Shown here piece by piece: positions 33,420 to 37,900 of a stretch of DNA of 39,150 nucleotides. The stretch comes from Candidatus Thorarchaeota archaeon (GTDB lineage Archaea > Asgardarchaeota > Thorarchaeia > Thorarchaeales > Thorarchaeaceae), in the NCBI GenBank assembly GCA_048882385.1, contig JBHLRQ010000021.1, positions 1 through 39,150 of the forward strand, read 5' to 3'. Under the pieces are notes generated by a model that saw nothing but the letters and a program-made list of their open reading frames with translations, ran no database searches and was not told where the DNA came from. How positions within the stretch are numbered: the first letter of the stretch is position 1; each line of letters opens with the position of its first letter. A program made the position numbers and the translations under genes.

Positions 33420-33475
33420 ATCATTGTTATGCCTTAAATACTCCCAAACGTCCTTGTTTCAGGGGTTTATTGATT

Positions 33476-34984
33476 ATGACCGATGATCTTGATGTCGAAA
33501 CTGTCAGGATAATTCGTCTTACTGGACTCAGAGAAGCTGAAATCACTTCCGCCAGAAAAGAACAAAACACAACGTGGACGAAAATCCAGAATACGATTGA
33601 AAATCATAATCGATTCATCAAAATGGGTGAAAGGCATACTCGGCAAAAAGCTGTCCAAGACCCTGTTCACGGAGCGATTCTTCTCGAGCCATGGGAACTC
33701 GACATCATATCAACATGGGAAATGCTTCGACTTCGATATGTCCGACAACTTGGTCCTGCACATCTAGTCTATCCTGGAGCAACACATACAAGGTTTGAAC
33801 ACTGTATCGGAACCAACTTTCTTGCTCAGAAATCAATCCGAGTAGTGAACTACTGTGAAGACCTCGATAAAGCTTGTTTTGTGCCTTTTTCAGGACTGAT
33901 TGATGATTATCATCAGAAGATATTCAGAGCTGGGGCACTGCTTCATGATGTTGGACATCCTCCTACTTCTCACACAATTGAATATGCTCTACATTCTTGG
34001 GTTGGTCTTGACCACTTAGATTTGGGTACGTTCCTAATTCTGAATAGCAGTCTGAATGATACCTTGAAAGAAAATGATATTGATCCAAAGGATGTAGTCA
34101 ATATTCTTCGGAGGAAGACGAATGAACCAATCAAAGAGCTGCTTTCTGAATTTCTTGATCATCCATTGGATATTGATAAAACAGACTACCTGATTAGAGA
34201 CGCACACTTCAGCGGGGTTCAGTTAGGCATTTTCCCTGCCGAGAGAGTCCTGCTTACAAATCGAGTTGTAAGAAACAAGAAAGGCAATTACATCCGAGCT
34301 TTTATGCTAAAAGCAATTCATTCTTTGGAAGCATTGATTCTCAGTAGAAACTGGATGTTTAGTGATCTCTACTTACACCATGCTGTCAAGCTGGCTGAAG
34401 CATTGATCTCAAAGGCGACTTATTTCAGAATGAAAGAAGAGGATTTGTCAAAGAATGAGTGCGTAGGCTTCTTTACCCGCATGACAGATGGAGACCTTTT
34501 CAGATGGCTTGAGAATTCAGATATCGATTTCGTAAGAGAATATGCTTCCAGGATTCGTTATCGCAAACTGTTCAAAGTCGTGTTATCGAGACCACTTACC
34601 TCGTTTGAGAGAGATACCGAAAAGCGCTTTCGAGAGATGATTCAGAACATTCCTCTATTGATCGAAGCCGAGAACGAGCTCGCTGATGTGGAGGGAAGTG
34701 TTGTCATTGATGTCGTCGATCCACCTCTAGGAGAAAAAACCCTTGGGAAGATACCTCTTCTTGTAGGTGGAGAAACAGGCTTTGATATTGTGAGTCTTGA
34801 TGAAACTAATGAAGGTCGTCCATTGATGCATATTCTTGAACAGCAATCACGAACAATCCCCTCAGTGAGGGTTTATGCCGATGCAAGTATCACAGACAAG
34901 ATACGGAAGCGATTCGACAAGTTATTCCCTATTGCTGATAGTCCTACATACCGAGAAGATGAGTATGACCTTACTGAATACTAA
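33476..34984 (+). CDS. HD-domain phosphohydrolase, SAMHD1/dNTP triphosphohydrolase-like
   Basis: DPVHG, RLRYVRQLG, VYPGATHTRFEH, LLHDVGH..SH, DIDKTDYLIRD, LYLHH. TATA-like TTAAATA at 33434-33440. Confidence 0.9.
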   Translation: MTDDLDVETVRIIRLTGLREAEITSARKEQNTTWTKIQNTIENHNRFIKMGERHTRQKAVQDPVHGAILLEPWELDIISTWEMLRLRYVRQLGPAHLVYPGATHTRFEHCIGTNFLAQKSIRVVNYCEDLDKACFVPFSGLIDDYHQKIFRAGALLHDVGHPPTSHTIEYALHSWVGLDHLDLGTFLILNSSLNDTLKENDIDPKDVVNILRRKTNEPIKELLSEFLDHPLDIDKTDYLIRDAHFSGVQLGIFPAERVLLTNRVVRNKKGNYIRAFMLKAIHSLEALILSRNWMFSDLYLHHAVKLAEALISKATYFRMKEEDLSKNECVGFFTRMTDGDLFRWLENSDIDFVREYASRIRYRKLFKVVLSRPLTSFERDTEKRFREMIQNIPLLIEAENELADVEGSVVIDVVDPPLGEKTLGKIPLLVGGETGFDIVSLDETNEGRPLMHILEQQSRTIPSVRVYADASITDKIRKRFDKLFPIADSPTYREDEYDLTEY

Positions 34985-35666
34985 TCAGATGTTTTACTAA
35001 ATCCACTACTCGTTTGTACTCATGCTCAATATAGATGATGCCATATATTGCTTCTATGAGTGTCCCCTTGTCATGGTTGATTTCTGACTTGCTTGGCGTG
35101 TCAGGATCGAAATGAATGCGATAGTTATACAGATCCCATTTATCACACAGCTTTGCCATGTTCTCATTGCTCACAATTTCTGCCTTCCTTAAGGTAATCT
35201 TTCCCGCATCCCCCAAGTGCGGTTTCCATAGATGCTTAAGAACTGCTGATGATATAACCGCATCACCAACAAGTGCTAGTACTTTCGCCATCTCGCTTAG
35301 ATTGATCATTTGGGCAAATTCGTCTTGTCCTAAAAGATCCTCATTACTATTACGATAATGGGTATCTATCTCCAAGAAAATATTCTTGGTACTAGGCTGA
35401 AACATAGCAACAAGGAAAAGCTCATGGTTCTGAAATCTCACATTCAAGACATCTTGTAAGAATGGAATGAGATTCTCTTCTATGCGTTGAAAGGAGTTTT
35501 GAATATACCTGATATCCTCGAGCCACTTTTCGAGTTTGCCCAGAAGTCGAGTGTTATTCATTGGTGTACTAGCAAAGGTCGATTGAACTGCTTCAACAAG
35601 TGCATTCATGCGACGTTTTAGCTGTATTGGATTCCAAGAAAGTGCCAAGTGTGAATTATCAGTCAA
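34971..35666 (-). CDS. Ribonuclease III-domain protein without dsRBD
   Basis: LNVRFQNHELF..AM..PS, LALVGDAVI, GKITLRKAEIVSNENMA, GTLIEAIYGIIY follow the RNase III domain pattern. Probable start TTG 35666, just after the upstream stop. Confidence 0.75.
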   Translation of the reverse strand: MTDNSHLALSWNPIQLKRRMNALVEAVQSTFASTPMNNTRLLGKLEKWLEDIRYIQNSFQRIEENLIPFLQDVLNVRFQNHELFLVAMFQPSTKNIFLEIDTHYRNSNEDLLGQDEFAQMINLSEMAKVLALVGDAVISSAVLKHLWKPHLGDAGKITLRKAEIVSNENMAKLCDKWDLYNYRIHFDPDTPSKSEINHDKGTLIEAIYGIIYIEHEYKRVVDLVKHLISIQ

Positions 35667-35679
35667 TATGTCACGTCCT

Positions 35680-36462
35680 TCAGTAATAGCTAACCTCCGC
35701 ATTATTTGCGTCGTAGCTTGTGACATGAAAAGCAGTAATTGAGTATTCGGCTGCCAATTTAGCCATTGCAAGTGCCACAAGTGGAGGTCCCAATGTCAAA
35801 TCAATGACAATATCATGGTCGTTAATGTGCTTCAAGATAGTATCCTCCAGGAAATCGCAGGTCCCTTGAAGATTGCCATACTCGTGTGTTTCTCGAGTTC
35901 CCGTGACATTGTCAGGAACCTCATTCCATTCTGTAGTCCATACTCGAAAAGCATCATCAGGAATGAACCGATCTAAAATCCTTGACACACCTCTTGTCCA
36001 ATGTATGGCTTCAACGAAAACCAATAGTTGTTTTGGATTGAAGTGAGGATTATTGGCTAGCCACTGCACAAATGGTCGCTGCTCTTCAGGATTGCTCAGC
36101 GAAGTAACATACATTAGCGGTTTTGTGATTCCTAGAGCTCGACGCACCGGGATTATAGCCCGAGGGTCTAGTTCGAAAAGGCGGTACTGTGATTGTTTCC
36201 AACTGACAATAATTCCAAGTTCTTCAAGACGACCTGTGTTGTGGTAGAGTTTGGGACTGGTCACTTCAATCGTTTCAGCCTCCTTCTTGGTAAGAGCACG
36301 TCCTTTCCTCTTGACCTCTTGAGCCTGCATATCCCTTCGAATAGCTTCCCGCAGTTCAGTTCCTGTCTTCAGTCCCCCCTCAAGGTGATCAAGGATAATC
36401 CTTCTAGCCCTGACAGTTTCAATTTCTTCTCTTATGATGTCTTCAACAGACTTTCTGAGCAT
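35680..36462 (-). CDS. Winged-HTH protein with C-terminal CARF-like Rossmann domain
   Basis: N-terminal RRIILDHL..T.TEL..KLYHN..RLEELGII wHTH; C-terminal IVIDLTLGPP..LAM..AAEY.I..FHV resembles CARF motif II. Confidence 0.6.
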   Translation of the reverse strand: MLRKSVEDIIREEIETVRARRIILDHLEGGLKTGTELREAIRRDMQAQEVKRKGRALTKKEAETIEVTSPKLYHNTGRLEELGIIVSWKQSQYRLFELDPRAIIPVRRALGITKPLMYVTSLSNPEEQRPFVQWLANNPHFNPKQLLVFVEAIHWTRGVSRILDRFIPDDAFRVWTTEWNEVPDNVTGTRETHEYGNLQGTCDFLEDTILKHINDHDIVIDLTLGPPLVALAMAKLAAEYSITAFHVTSYDANNAEVSYY

Positions 36463-36627
36463 CTCTGGCCACCGTTCGCGGAGGTATTAGCTAGTAATTA
36501 CGAGTATTAAACTTTTATACTTATCGAAGGTAATGTCCAGAAAGCCTCGAAAAATGGGCCAAAAACACGGCATCATATATATACATTAGATACTTTTCGA
36601 AATAGTTTGAGTTTAACGGACGTACCC

Positions 36628-36634
36628 TTAAATA
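36628..36634 (+). promoter_or_regulatory. TATA-box candidate for actin (TTAAATA)
   Basis: Archaeal TATA consensus about 75 bp upstream of the actin ATG; another TA-run lies at 36575-36583. Confidence 0.4.
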
Positions 36635-36708
36635 GACTCCGCCTGAACAAAAAACTAGAACAAGGTCTCAAGGACTTTGAACTAATCACAAACGAGGACC
36701 GATAAAAA

Positions 36709-37848
36709 ATGGCTGAAGACGAGTTTCTTGGCGCGAAGCCCATTGTCATTGACAATGGTACTGGTTTGAGCAAGAACGGTTACGCCGGCGAAGATCAGCC
36801 ACGCAGCGTTTGGCCCACACTAATTGGTTATCCACGTTATGAATCAATCATGACTGACGTGGACCACTATACACGTGACTACTACATTGGTGAAGAGGCT
36901 ATCAACCTCCGTGGTGTACTCCGCTTGGTATACCCGATCTCTCATGGAATCGTAGAAGACTGGGATGCGATTGAAAAGATTTGGAGCTACACCTTTTACA
37001 ATGATCTTAAGGTAGATCCTAGTGAGAATCCAGTGCTTCTTACTGAAGCACCATTCAACCCCAGAGAAAACAGAGAGCGCATGGCATCTGTCATGTTTGA
37101 TAACTTTGGTGTACCTGCTGTGTACGTTGCTACACAGGCTGTACTCTCATTGTACGCATCCGGAAGGACCACAGGTCTGGTCATTGACTCCGGTGACGGT
37201 GTTACCCACATAGTACCAATCTATGAGGGCTTTTCAATCAACCACGCAATCAAGCGAATTGACTTGGCTGGTAGAGACATCACTGAGTATTTGCGCAGAC
37301 TCCTCAGACAGAGGGGCTACTCATTCGTGAGTGGTGCAGAGAAAGAGATTGTCAGAGATATCAAAGAGAAGCTATGCTACGTAGCTCTAGATCCCGAAAG
37401 GGAAAGGACTGTCGCTGACAAAGCTGGTGTTGACAAACCCTACATGCTACCTGACGGTGAGGTAATCACCATTGGTGCAGAGAGATTCCAGGGACCCGAG
37501 TTGTTCTTCAATCCTAGTGCCATTGGTCTAGATACCATTCCACTTGATGACCACATTGTCGAGTCAATCAAAGCCTGTGACGTCGACTTGAGGCGTGACC
37601 TATACGCTAACATAGTTCTATCAGGTGGTTCAACCATGTTCCCAGGACTCAAGGAGAGACTCCACAAGGAGATCACCGAGCTAGTCCCAGAGAACATTGA
37701 GGTCCGAATCATTGCTCCTCCCGAGAGACAGTACTCTGTCTGGATTGGTGGAAGCATTCTTGGCTCACTCAAGACATTCCAGAAGATGTGGGTGTCGAAG
37801 AAAGAGTTCGAAGAAGTCGGACCCGAAGTGATACACCGCTGTATCTAG
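36709..37848 (+). CDS. Asgard actin (eukaryote-like actin)
   Basis: [93 protein letters not shown]; 379 aa. Confidence 0.97.
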
Positions 37849-37887
37849 TATACACAGTTTAACGAAGGTGGGCTTCGGCCCCCTTCG
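37798..37887 (+). repeat. Direct repeat copy 1: actin 3' end plus hairpin (att-like left junction)
   Basis: 37798-37848 matches 38975-39025 at 48 of 51 nt; the downstream hairpin is also shared. Confidence 0.9.
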
Positions 37888-37900
37888 CTCTCTTGTTTTT
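37863..37900 (+). terminator. Actin terminator hairpin with cUUCGg tetraloop and pyrimidine/T tract
   Basis: CGAAGG(T)GGGC-TTCG-GCCC-CCTTCG followed by ctctcttgttttt. Confidence 0.8.

Follow-up and report, generated by a model that had tools for sequence, protein, structure and literature searches.

The window analysed here covers positions 1–39,150 of contig JBHLRQ010000021.1, a stretch of 39,150 nucleotides from the 95.3%-complete genome of a Candidatus Thorarchaeota archaeon (GCA_048882385.1). Three of its genes are considered in what follows. Gene A (35680–36462, minus strand) starts with ATG and encodes a protein of 260 aa that combines a winged helix-turn-helix (wHTH) with a CARF domain and belongs to the Thor-type subfamily of the CARF_m5 family. 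Gene B (34971–35666, minus strand) follows it and encodes 231 aa, with two long N-terminal helices and an RNase III catalytic domain. An actin gene (36709–37848, plus strand, 379 aa, Pfam Actin E 2.6e-132) lies head-to-head with gene A, and the 246 bp between the two (36463–36708) putatively hold divergent promoters. The spacer between genes A and B (35667–35679, minus strand) is 13 nt long, contains AGGA and is too short for a promoter or terminator. The start of gene B was placed at a TTG 13 nt past the TGA of gene A and not at the next in-frame ATG (35609), which would give a 70-nt gap, because homologues start at the TTG position and the scripted gap is 13. The co-orientation and 13 bp spacing of the two genes, given in a preliminary description made from the sequence alone, were thus reproduced. 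A gene for a SAMHD1-like HD protein converges on gene B.

The N-terminal part of gene A, about residues 1–112 (36127–36462, minus strand), is an ArsR-like wHTH. In VIA-align, a fold search independent of Foldseek, residues 1–113 resembled the winged-helix repressors TubR, RosR, CzrA and HlyU (Z 7.0–7.3), and some homologues of gene A carry an ArsR-family annotation at source. The alignment reveals a lineage-specific basic insert around residues 40–67 of the wHTH. The C-terminal part, about residues 113–260 (35683–36126, minus strand), was assigned as a CARF domain with both Foldseek and VIA-align. The best Foldseek E value was 1.6e-5, with 43 matches at E ≤ 0.001, and the matches listed were all CARF. 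The best 25 VIA-align rows were likewise all CARF proteins, with Z from 14.5 to 8.6, and generic Rossmann folds followed from Z 8.3 down; the closest structure was VC1899 (1xmx, Z 14.5, rmsd 2.5 over 127 residues). Residues 113–260 contain the six-stranded core of the CARF type, the superfamily being described in the sections of Makarova 2014 used here as a six-stranded Rossmann-like core with a hairpin of strands 5 and 6 (PMC4012209). The peptides quoted in the preliminary description, LMYVTSLS, PKQLLVFV and IVIDLTLGPP...FHV, are all present in gene A and fall on strands of its AlphaFold model (116–122, 145–151, 217–221 and 243–247; pLDDT 77.7). The C-terminal CARF domain proposed there was checked on the model and was upheld by Foldseek, VIA-align and a PADLOC profile alike. 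Pfam and NCBIfam scans of gene A gave no match, and a sequence search of the PDB returned only noise (E 1.7); 77 homologues were found by search.

The PADLOC profile is PDLC01987 (CARF_m5--CARF), which residues 12–249 match over positions 4–188 of 195 with E 1.5e-22 and 78.6 bits, PADLOC-DB 2.0 profiles having no curated cut-off. Gene A is the single match to this profile in the whole genome, and the E values of its orthologues elsewhere in Asgard archaea range from 2.4e-80 to 3.4e-32. The CARF_m5 label presumably follows the naming of minor clades in the CARF classification that Makarova et al. published in 2020. Gene A shares with the clade the order of wHTH followed by CARF and a length of about 200–260 aa. 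It differs as part of the most divergent branch of the tree, in which the basic residue of the pocket motif is missing, both domains carry inserts and an RNase III gene is attached; in the CARF domain of the Thor-type proteins, the insert is invariant and includes E151, W155 and R165 (alignment of 26 family sequences). Gene A belongs to a catalogued clade, and the undescribed defence or stress module that had been suggested is not supported.

The first CARF strand of gene A (LMYVTSL, residues 116–122, then S) closes with the expected polar S/T residue, and the TSLS stretch is largely kept in the family, with some substitutions. After strand 4, the sequence D221-L-T-L-G-P-P departs from the CARF signature [DN]-x-[ST]-x-x-x-[RK]. 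Throughout the 26-sequence alignment, the aspartate is invariant, almost every sequence retains T/S and G, and the basic residue is replaced by P, T, S or Q in every sequence; the LGPP motif pointed out earlier is therefore present in gene A and its lack of a basic residue is shared by 26/26 family members. The motif D-x-[ST]-x-G-x-[KR] is retained by gene A orthologues elsewhere in Asgard archaea (e.g., D-V-T-G-G-S-K), which indicates that the ligand pocket is ancestral. The loss of the K/R does not bar gene A from the CARF superfamily, since the RtcR and RV2818 families also lack [RK] after strand 4, as stated in the part of PMC4012209 used here. Nevertheless, the loss may mean that the Thor-type CARF domain binds no ligand any more.

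Two known regulators are informative for comparison. Csa3 also joins a CARF sensor to a winged-helix output with no enzymatic domain, and its CARF domain (2wte, 6wxq) superposes with that of gene A (Z 12.5, rmsd 3.1 over 128 residues for 6wxq); gene A is likely a ligand-modulated transcription factor as well. The order of domains in gene A (wHTH at 1–112, CARF at 113–260) is the reverse of that in Csa3, as had been noticed from the sequence. In addition, Csa3 lies in or beside CRISPR-Cas loci of types I-A and III, whereas no CRISPR was found in the genome of gene A, the basic pocket residue is missing from gene A and only the wHTH part touches the PADLOC Csa3 profile, weakly (E 0.0029). RtcR, an activator that joins CARF to an NtrC-type AAA+ ATPase and a C-terminal HTH and senses damaged tRNA ends, is another CARF regulator outside CRISPR with an RNA-metabolism gene in the operon it controls (RtcBA RNA repair). 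Gene A differs from it in the lack of an AAA+ sigma-54 module (none in Pfam or NCBIfam), in its far smaller size and in being archaeal; no sequence match to RtcR appeared in the Pfam or NCBIfam scans. In the RtcR family, as in that of gene A, the K/R after strand 4 is mostly missing, which is read as a sign of a different ligand in the sections of Makarova 2014 considered here (PMC4012209).

Gene B matches Pfam Ribonuclease_3 (PF00636) with E 5.8e-12 and 46.7 bits (cut-off 27), and it is the single match, and thus the only RNase III domain, in a search of the genome. Its model has a pLDDT of 89.1 and places the N-terminal helices at residues 16–33 and 39–74; this helical hairpin is well modelled and family-specific. 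No dsRBD is seen: the catalytic domain is the last part of the protein, and Pfam reported no dsrm family. In VIA-align, gene B is most similar to class 1 bacterial RNase III, namely the enzymes of T. maritima (1o0w, Z 14.6, rmsd 2.5 over 153 residues), C. jejuni (Z 14.2) and E. coli (Z 13.9), and the RNase III domains of Dicer reach Z 12–13. The GD-signature aspartate and the C-terminal glutamate of class 1 enzymes are invariant in gene B; unlike these enzymes, it has no dsRBD and possesses the extra N-terminal hairpin, and it scores 34.8 bits against the bacterial equivalog TIGR02191, far below the cut-off of 166.25. RNase III enzymes hold their metal ions with four acidic residues, two in the ExxxD signature (E and D) and two in a C-terminal DxxE (D and E). 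In the gene B family, D135 and E205 are invariant; the other two canonical acidic positions, as placed by HMMER alignments to Drosha, are occupied by an invariant A131 and T202. By sequence profile, the best solved relative of gene B is the first RNase III domain of Drosha (E 3.8e-11), the best bacterial enzyme reaching E 3.5e-5. The Mini-III enzymes of Firmicutes are also stand-alone catalytic domains without a dsRBD, but the Mini-III structure 4oun reached only Z 8.0 and rank 26 (best Z 14.6), behind 25 classical, Dicer, Drosha and mitoribosomal RNase III-type chains, and no Mini-III sequence match was found in the PDB or NCBIfam searches.

The older partner of gene A is the actin gene, a conserved neighbour across Asgard archaea. 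In the Thor-type family, actin stands head-to-head with gene A at a distance of 246–587 nt in 46 of the 50 loci fetched, and the remaining four end before the actin position. Outside this family, actin adjoins an A-like gene in 15 of the 20 loci fetched, and five further genomes were recognised by coordinates, giving a total of 19 genomes in 10 further Asgard families. The head-to-head order is kept across 11 families, and the genes further out differ by family. In one family gene A is displaced from actin, and its protein is sister to an actin-linked one (support 100/99). Large Asgard families with no match to gene A have no A-like gene beside actin in any of 16 loci (best E 0.17), so actin does not need gene A. 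In several families, a 2-phosphosulfolactate phosphatase gene (PF04029) repeatedly flanks A-like genes on their opposite side, which implies that part of the gene A neighbourhood is simply conserved; the adjacency of gene A and actin could likewise be inherited synteny. Other CARF_m5 members adjoin, and mostly face, type III CRISPR genes (loci L102, L103, L104 and L108) or viperin genes (L106, L109), and relatives in this clade also occur in a locus with a CD-NTase-like cyclase. By analogy, the placement facing CRISPR or viperin genes is as would be expected of a regulator and its target.

The region shared by gene A and actin was footprinted at the genus level using 21 unique sequences. It holds a putative actin TATA-like box (about 36625–36635), the box TTCGAAAAGTAT (36590–36601, minus strand), a near-repeat of this box with a putative TATA-like element of gene A (36512–36528) and a conserved block just upstream of gene A (36478–36498). 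In the genus of the window, the conserved blocks look like BRE/TATA elements and one block at the likely start site of gene A. No clear palindrome was found in this region in the genus. Among 14 non-Thor intergenic regions, only 4 have longest inverted repeats that beat shuffled sequences (p ≤ 0.015). The 11-mer ATCATCTATAT comes from three other Asgard families and was selected visually on data of a similar type. In the window, a motif scan places a 10/11 match to it at 36572–36582, a stretch partly conserved within the genus. Three of 16 genus representatives (L001, the locus in the window, together with L083 and L095) reach 10/11, with shuffle p of 0.003–0.013, and 13 remain below. Where gene A is displaced, 11/11 and 10/11 matches occur upstream of actin, and only 7–8/11 upstream of gene A itself; none of ten actin upstream regions from lineages lacking gene A reaches 10/11. 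For the Thor-type family, the evidence for a cis-element is weak.

Our preferred interpretation, to which we give about an even chance, is that gene A is a ligand-modulated transcription factor of the CARF_m5 family that sets the expression of actin and of its own A–B operon from the shared region. Gene A would act as a one-component factor, with the ArsR-like winged helix placed before the CARF sensor. CARF proteins form homodimers whose ligand pocket lies on the two-fold axis, and a dimer of gene A would bind within the 246 bp that separate it from the divergent actin gene. A small nucleotide-type ligand would then set transcription of actin and of the A–B operon. In the Thor-type family, the operon would have gained a second, translationally coupled gene, the only RNase III of the genome, so that the amount of a housekeeping dsRNA endonuclease would respond to the same signal. 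The domain identities, the operon anatomy, both conserved linkages and the lack of CRISPR are observed; for gene A, the binding of DNA and of a ligand, dimer formation and actin as a target are proposals, as is any regulation of gene B beyond co-transcription.

It is also conceivable, though unlikely, that the linkages have no regulatory meaning, gene A regulating unrelated genes or being a ligand-less dimeric DNA-binder in an inherited gene order. The recurrent PF04029 neighbour, the lost K/R, the mixed palindrome and motif statistics and the 16/16 loci of other large families in which actin has no such neighbour are all consistent with this. Against it stand the head-to-head order with actin, kept across 11 families while the outer genes vary, the paralogues of the CARF_m5 clade that adjoin defence genes in a similar manner, and the occurrence of ATCATCTATAT upstream of actin where gene A exists, even displaced, with its absence in the ten controls.

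Within one Thor-type family, genes A and B make up a core operon that is inherited vertically. Gene A is present in 72 and gene B in 74 of its 76 genomes, both as single copies. By coordinates, gene B lies directly downstream of gene A on the same strand in 72 of the 73 genomes with a match to gene A, and contig ends break the locus in the 73rd. In 48 of 50 fetched loci, the distance between the two genes ranges from −17 to +19 nt, with many 4-nt overlaps; the tight operon proposed earlier is thus conserved across the family, and the spacing suggests that the two genes are co-transcribed. Outside the family, none of 20 loci with A-like genes had an RNase III neighbour, gene A was absent beside RNase III homologues in 15 of 15 fetched loci, and homologues of gene B had no conserved partners there, their neighbours being variable. 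The expectation that the pair would be linked in relatives therefore held within the Thor-type family and failed beyond it.

The same operon structure would suit a split CARF-controlled nuclease similar to Csm6 or Can2, in which ligand binding by the CARF dimer switches the RNase III dimer on or off and the winged helix of gene A tethers the complex to nucleic acid, with no role in transcription. We regard this as distinctly unlikely. A stop and start that overlap by 4 nt or lie at most 19 nt apart in 48/50 loci suggest stoichiometric co-synthesis, and the co-occurrence of the two genes is strict (72/73 genomes). The N-terminal hairpin of gene B is a candidate docking surface, and the CARF domain of Thor-type gene A has its own invariant insert (E151, W155, R165). 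Furthermore, most CARF proteins are fused to nucleases, according to the part of Makarova 2014 consulted (PMC4012209). However, A-like proteins exist without gene B in at least ten other families, and homologues of gene B exist without gene A in 15/15 loci. No fused A–B protein was found among proteins of 456–2000 aa, which is weak evidence.

The defence context of the locus was examined in the window, the genome and the related genomes. The window contains no family of array-like direct repeats, and the genome has no match to the Csm1, Cmr2, Cas1 and PADLOC Cas10 profiles, in agreement with the earlier statement that no CRISPR locus is nearby. The profiles TIGR02578, TIGR02577, PDLC00919 and PF18144 (SMODS), which gave matches in control genomes, also failed to detect a Cas10 or CD-NTase in this 95.3%-complete genome. 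Cas10 is found in none of 24 genomes of the genus, in 8 of the 76 genomes of the Thor-type family and in none of 19, 3 and 3 genomes of three other families with gene A. Since the basic pocket residue is lost and no cyclic-oligoadenylate synthase is detectable, the ligand of Thor-type gene A is probably not a Cas10 product; by analogy with RtcR, it may be RNA-derived, or it may be absent. The preliminary description took genes A and B for a candidate stress, defence or RNA-processing module in which gene A controls the nuclease, itself a putative role, and did not consider actin; the two are core, near-universal, single-copy genes of the family with actin as the Asgard-wide partner of gene A, and a defence system is neither new nor supported. 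It is very unlikely that gene A is a transcription factor that senses a new nucleotide ligand and induces the dsRNA nuclease, within a stress or antiviral module that works independently of CRISPR: the CARF fold with an altered pocket, the position directly upstream of a nuclease gene, the CARF_m5 relatives in type III CRISPR, viperin and CD-NTase-like cyclase loci and the SAMHD1-like HD protein gene converging on gene B speak for it, but the fixed single-copy place beside actin (A in 72/76, B in 74/76 genomes) fits core genes rather than a mobile defence island, gene B is the only RNase III of its genome and has no match in a PADLOC scan, and no signal synthase was found.

Gene A is a small, soluble candidate regulator whose fold is recognisably of a ligand-sensing type, and it is fixed beside actin in many Asgard families; the control of the eukaryote-like actin of these archaea could thereby be tested with recombinant protein and the 246-bp DNA. 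The defence-derived CARF_m5 family is seen in three settings: with type III CRISPR genes, with viperin and with a housekeeping gene of the cytoskeleton. A broader scenario, which we consider speculative and rather unlikely, is that Asgard archaea co-opted a CRISPR-type sensor of cyclic nucleotides at an early stage as a switch dedicated to transcription of the actin gene, and that the Thor-type branch lost the basic residue and recruited the RNase III. If so, infection signalling by cyclic oligoadenylates could reach a cytoskeleton gene directly in lineages that have a type III system and in which the pocket is still canonical, and in the Thor-type circuit an RNA-derived product or the nuclease itself could feed back on actin expression. 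A near-universal Thor-type RNase III without a dsRBD, whose closest solved relative by sequence is the first RNase III domain of Drosha, is also of interest with regard to how eukaryotic dsRNA processing arose. A literature search, with the 2020 CARF classification and the 2020 Asgard CRISPR paper outside its range, found no paper on the linkage of gene A to actin or RNase III.

Cleavage of the actin 5′ leader by gene B was considered and dropped: the leaders in the Thor-type family are about 55–110 nt long and contain only hairpins of 5–6 bp, with no long duplex. Three metatranscriptome runs were compared with positions 34900–37900, and coverage within this interval is confined to actin, two 151-nt contigs of one sediment run being identical to the actin gene.

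The locus contains two co-oriented genes, and the observation of both is real. Gene A (35680–36462, reverse strand) is an ORF for a wHTH-CARF protein of 260 aa, and gene B, encoding an RNase III domain, ends at 34971 on the same strand. The most likely start of B is the TTG at 35666, located 13 nt past the TGA of A and preceded by AGGA; homologues of B start exactly at this position. Starting at the next in-frame ATG would shorten the gene by 57 nt. An actin gene (36709–37848, forward strand, Pfam Actin E = 2.6e-132) is oriented opposite to A at a distance of 246 bp, and public RNA data over the locus provide cover for actin only. On the other side lies a forward gene for a 504 aa SAMHD1-like HD/HD_assoc_2 protein (33470–34984); it is convergent with B, and the 3′ ends of the two share 14 nt. 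This SAMHD1/dGTPase-like protein has a weak match to the PADLOC dGTPase profile (E = 4e-4).

Protein A had no match in Pfam or NCBIfam. Its AlphaFold model, obtained from 26 homologues, has a mean pLDDT of 77.7, with values of 82–95 across most of the C-terminal half. The preliminary description read this half as a CARF domain, and the structural comparisons agree. The Foldseek matches listed are CARF proteins only (Csm6, Cam1, Card1, Can2, ring nucleases and Csa3), and in a second, Foldseek-independent search of 48,161 chains, CARF proteins fill the first 25 ranks (Z from 14.5 down to 8.6). The best match is VC1899 (Z 14.5, rmsd 2.5 over 127 residues), and unrelated Rossmann folds appear from Z 8.3 downward. 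Residues 1–113 resemble winged-helix repressors of the ArsR/SmtB type (Z 7.0–7.3). The PADLOC scan gave a full-length match to the CARF_m5--CARF profile (E = 1.5e-22), which places A in a catalogued CARF clade with the wHTH-then-CARF order. Among described kinds, Csa3 and RtcR come nearest. Csa3 is built of the same parts in the opposite order and, unlike A, is bound to CRISPR. The CARF signature, as described in PMC4012209, includes a K/R after strand 4, and the same paper reports this residue as absent from the RtcR and RV2818 families. The A family has D-L-[TS]-x-G-x-x here, with P, T, S or Q in place of K/R, so the basic pocket residue described earlier as missing is indeed absent. The CARF protein RtcR, which regulates an RNA-repair operon, shares this absence.

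Protein B matches Pfam Ribonuclease_3 above the cut-off, and the genome yielded no other RNase III domain. Its model (pLDDT 89.1) consists of long N-terminal helices (residues 16–33 and 39–74) followed by a classical RNase III catalytic domain; no dsRBD was found in B. The closest structures are the enzymes of T. maritima, C. jejuni and E. coli (Z 14.6, 14.2 and 13.9), followed by Dicer domains (Z 12–13), with Mini-III at just 8.0. Of the four canonical acidic positions of RNase III, two keep their acidic residue (D135 and E205) throughout 24 homologues, whereas the other two, located via HMMER alignments to Drosha, are occupied just as invariantly by A131 and T202. Sequence profiles place human Drosha's first RNase III domain nearest among solved structures: the family profile matches it at E = 3.8e-11 and the top bacterial RNase III at 3.5e-5. 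By structure, bacterial enzymes slightly outscore Drosha. The stretch ahead of the signature motif can likewise be aligned to Drosha, if loosely. The Asgard RNase III of Bastiaanssen et al. (bioRxiv 10.1101/2023.12.14.571608) is a different enzyme, possessing a dsRBD and adjoining Argonaute.

Compared with B, actin is the older partner of A. Distant A-like proteins (213–268 aa) retain the canonical CARF signature, e.g., D-V-T-G-G-S-K, and match CARF_m5 with E values from 2.4e-80 to 3.4e-32. Actin is the immediate neighbour of their genes in 15 of 20 fetched loci, head-to-head in 14 and in tandem in one; one of these actin genes is only a fragment, lying where its contig starts, and the full-length genes have Pfam Actin E < 1e-114. 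Of the remaining five loci, two stop at contig ends; the three that lack actin belong to families f7 (two loci) and f28 (one). Adjacency by coordinates in five further genomes brings the total to 19 genomes in 10 families besides the window's own Thor-type family, f1. Within f1, actin is head-to-head with A, 246–587 nt apart, in 46/50 loci, and the other four stop short of that place. In families with no A match, actin lies beside unrelated neighbours (16/16 loci).

These data are best read in the following way, to which we give about an even chance: A would be a ligand-modulated winged-helix/CARF regulator acting on the intergenic region shared with actin (36463–36708). It would control both actin and its own operon, which in f1 would additionally supply the cell's RNase III. 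DNA binding, ligand, dimerisation and target of A are what we infer here. Synteny conserved without regulatory meaning, or a protein without a ligand, is an unlikely alternative. Part of the A-like neighbourhood is indeed conserved synteny, since several Asgard families have a ComB-like 2-phosphosulfolactate phosphatase gene (PF04029) 3′ of the A-like gene (L053, L054, L056–L059 and L064; one gene further out in L049–L051 and L065). In L046 and L061 of family f21 the A-like gene adjoins a gene for a eukaryote-type topoisomerase IB (Topoisom_I E = 1.9e-63), and in L064 of f6 one for a small GTPase of the Ras family (E = 1.6e-57).

For regulation of actin by A, the evidence from cis-elements is suggestive only. 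Several non-Thor families carry an inverted repeat some tens of nt upstream of the actin TATA-like box, exceeding shuffles (p ≤ 0.015) in 4/14 regions. The 11-mer ATCATCTATAT, picked by us from three of these families, occurs upstream of actin at 11/11 and 10/11 in two f7 genomes where A is located elsewhere, and at just 7–8/11 upstream of A itself. Three further lineages and 3/16 f1 genus representatives, including the window (36572–36582), have a 10/11 match; none of 10 control regions of A-lacking lineages reaches that level. In the window's genus, conservation is highest in the two TATA-like regions, in the repeated box TTCGA[AT]AAGTAT and in a block directly upstream of A. The f1 actin genes, that of the window included (region 36625–36708), have a common TATA-like box with a consensus close to GGCTTAAATA, 82–137 nt before the ATG, a position that implies a long leader with a conserved terminal ribosome-binding stretch, GAGGACCGA.

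The linkage of A and B was studied by profile searches in 301 sampled genomes of the phylum, with coordinates compared by eye. Profile A matched 115 genomes (72/76 of f1) and profile B 101 (74/76 of f1). B lies directly downstream of A on the same strand in 72 of 73 A-matching f1 genomes (16 genera, the window genome included); the exception is G161, where contig ends truncate both genes. All 50 fetched f1 loci show this arrangement, and the junction measures −17 to +19 nt in 48/50, frequently a 4-nt overlap, which suggests an operon, likely with translational coupling. The expectation of a pair kept across Asgard thus holds within f1 but not outside it: B is absent from all 20 loci of distant A-like genes, and A from all 15 loci of close B homologues in five other families, where neighbours differ. 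A split CARF–RNase III effector complex of A and B, for which this f1 linkage might speak, appears still less probable than the alternative of mere synteny or a ligand-less protein.

The CARF_m5 profile matched 140/301 Asgard genomes versus 0/14 control genomes, and an exhaustive search of 1.84 billion representative proteins returned just 29 matches. Sporadic members in other families lie within type III CRISPR loci carrying Cas10, Cas7, Cas5, Csx1 and Cas6 (L102, G038; L103, G171; L104, G273; L108, G006), head-to-head with viperin (L106, G211, and L109, G159; pVip E = 2.4e-88 and 1.2e-86) or directly upstream of a CD-NTase-like cyclase gene (L110, G279). In a tree of 32 members with a poorly supported backbone, defence-linked copies occupy separate long branches, and those linked to actin cluster in groups with short branches; the f7 copies away from actin are sister to an actin-linked copy (support 100/99).

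The A–B locus itself is not a CRISPR or CBASS appendage. As described earlier, no CRISPR is nearby: the window holds no array-like repeats, and Csm1, Cmr2, Cas1, SMODS, Piwi and PADLOC Cas10 had no match in the 95.3%-complete genome. Cas10 was detected in 0/24 genomes of the window's genus and 8/76 of f1, and in 0/19, 0/3 and 0/3 genomes of three other families with the actin-linked gene. The defence or stress module proposed in the preliminary description is the least probable of these readings and is not supported. The A family is already catalogued as CARF_m5, and A is better described as a candidate CARF regulator linked to actin, with RNase III as a partner specific to this lineage. No literature linking CARF_m5 to actin or RNase III was found, and the 2020 CARF classification may hold a prior mention.

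The actin genes of six f1 genomes (L095, G069; L100, G179; L087, G164; L097, G075; G161 and G299) contain a 30-nt insert at an identical codon, corresponding to about window position 37783; the window's actin lacks it. Where the insert ends, its 3′ junction forms a stop codon in frame, and the downstream frame still codes for the C-terminal part conserved among actins. Folding predictions for four sequences (−30 to −35 kcal/mol) give, in three of them, a 4-bp helix with a bulge of 3 nt on the side of the 5′ junction and unpaired nucleotides on that of the 3′ junction, as well as an inner stem with compensatory changes. On these predictions, the insert resembles a mini-intron of a relaxed bulge-helix-bulge type, here within a protein-coding gene.
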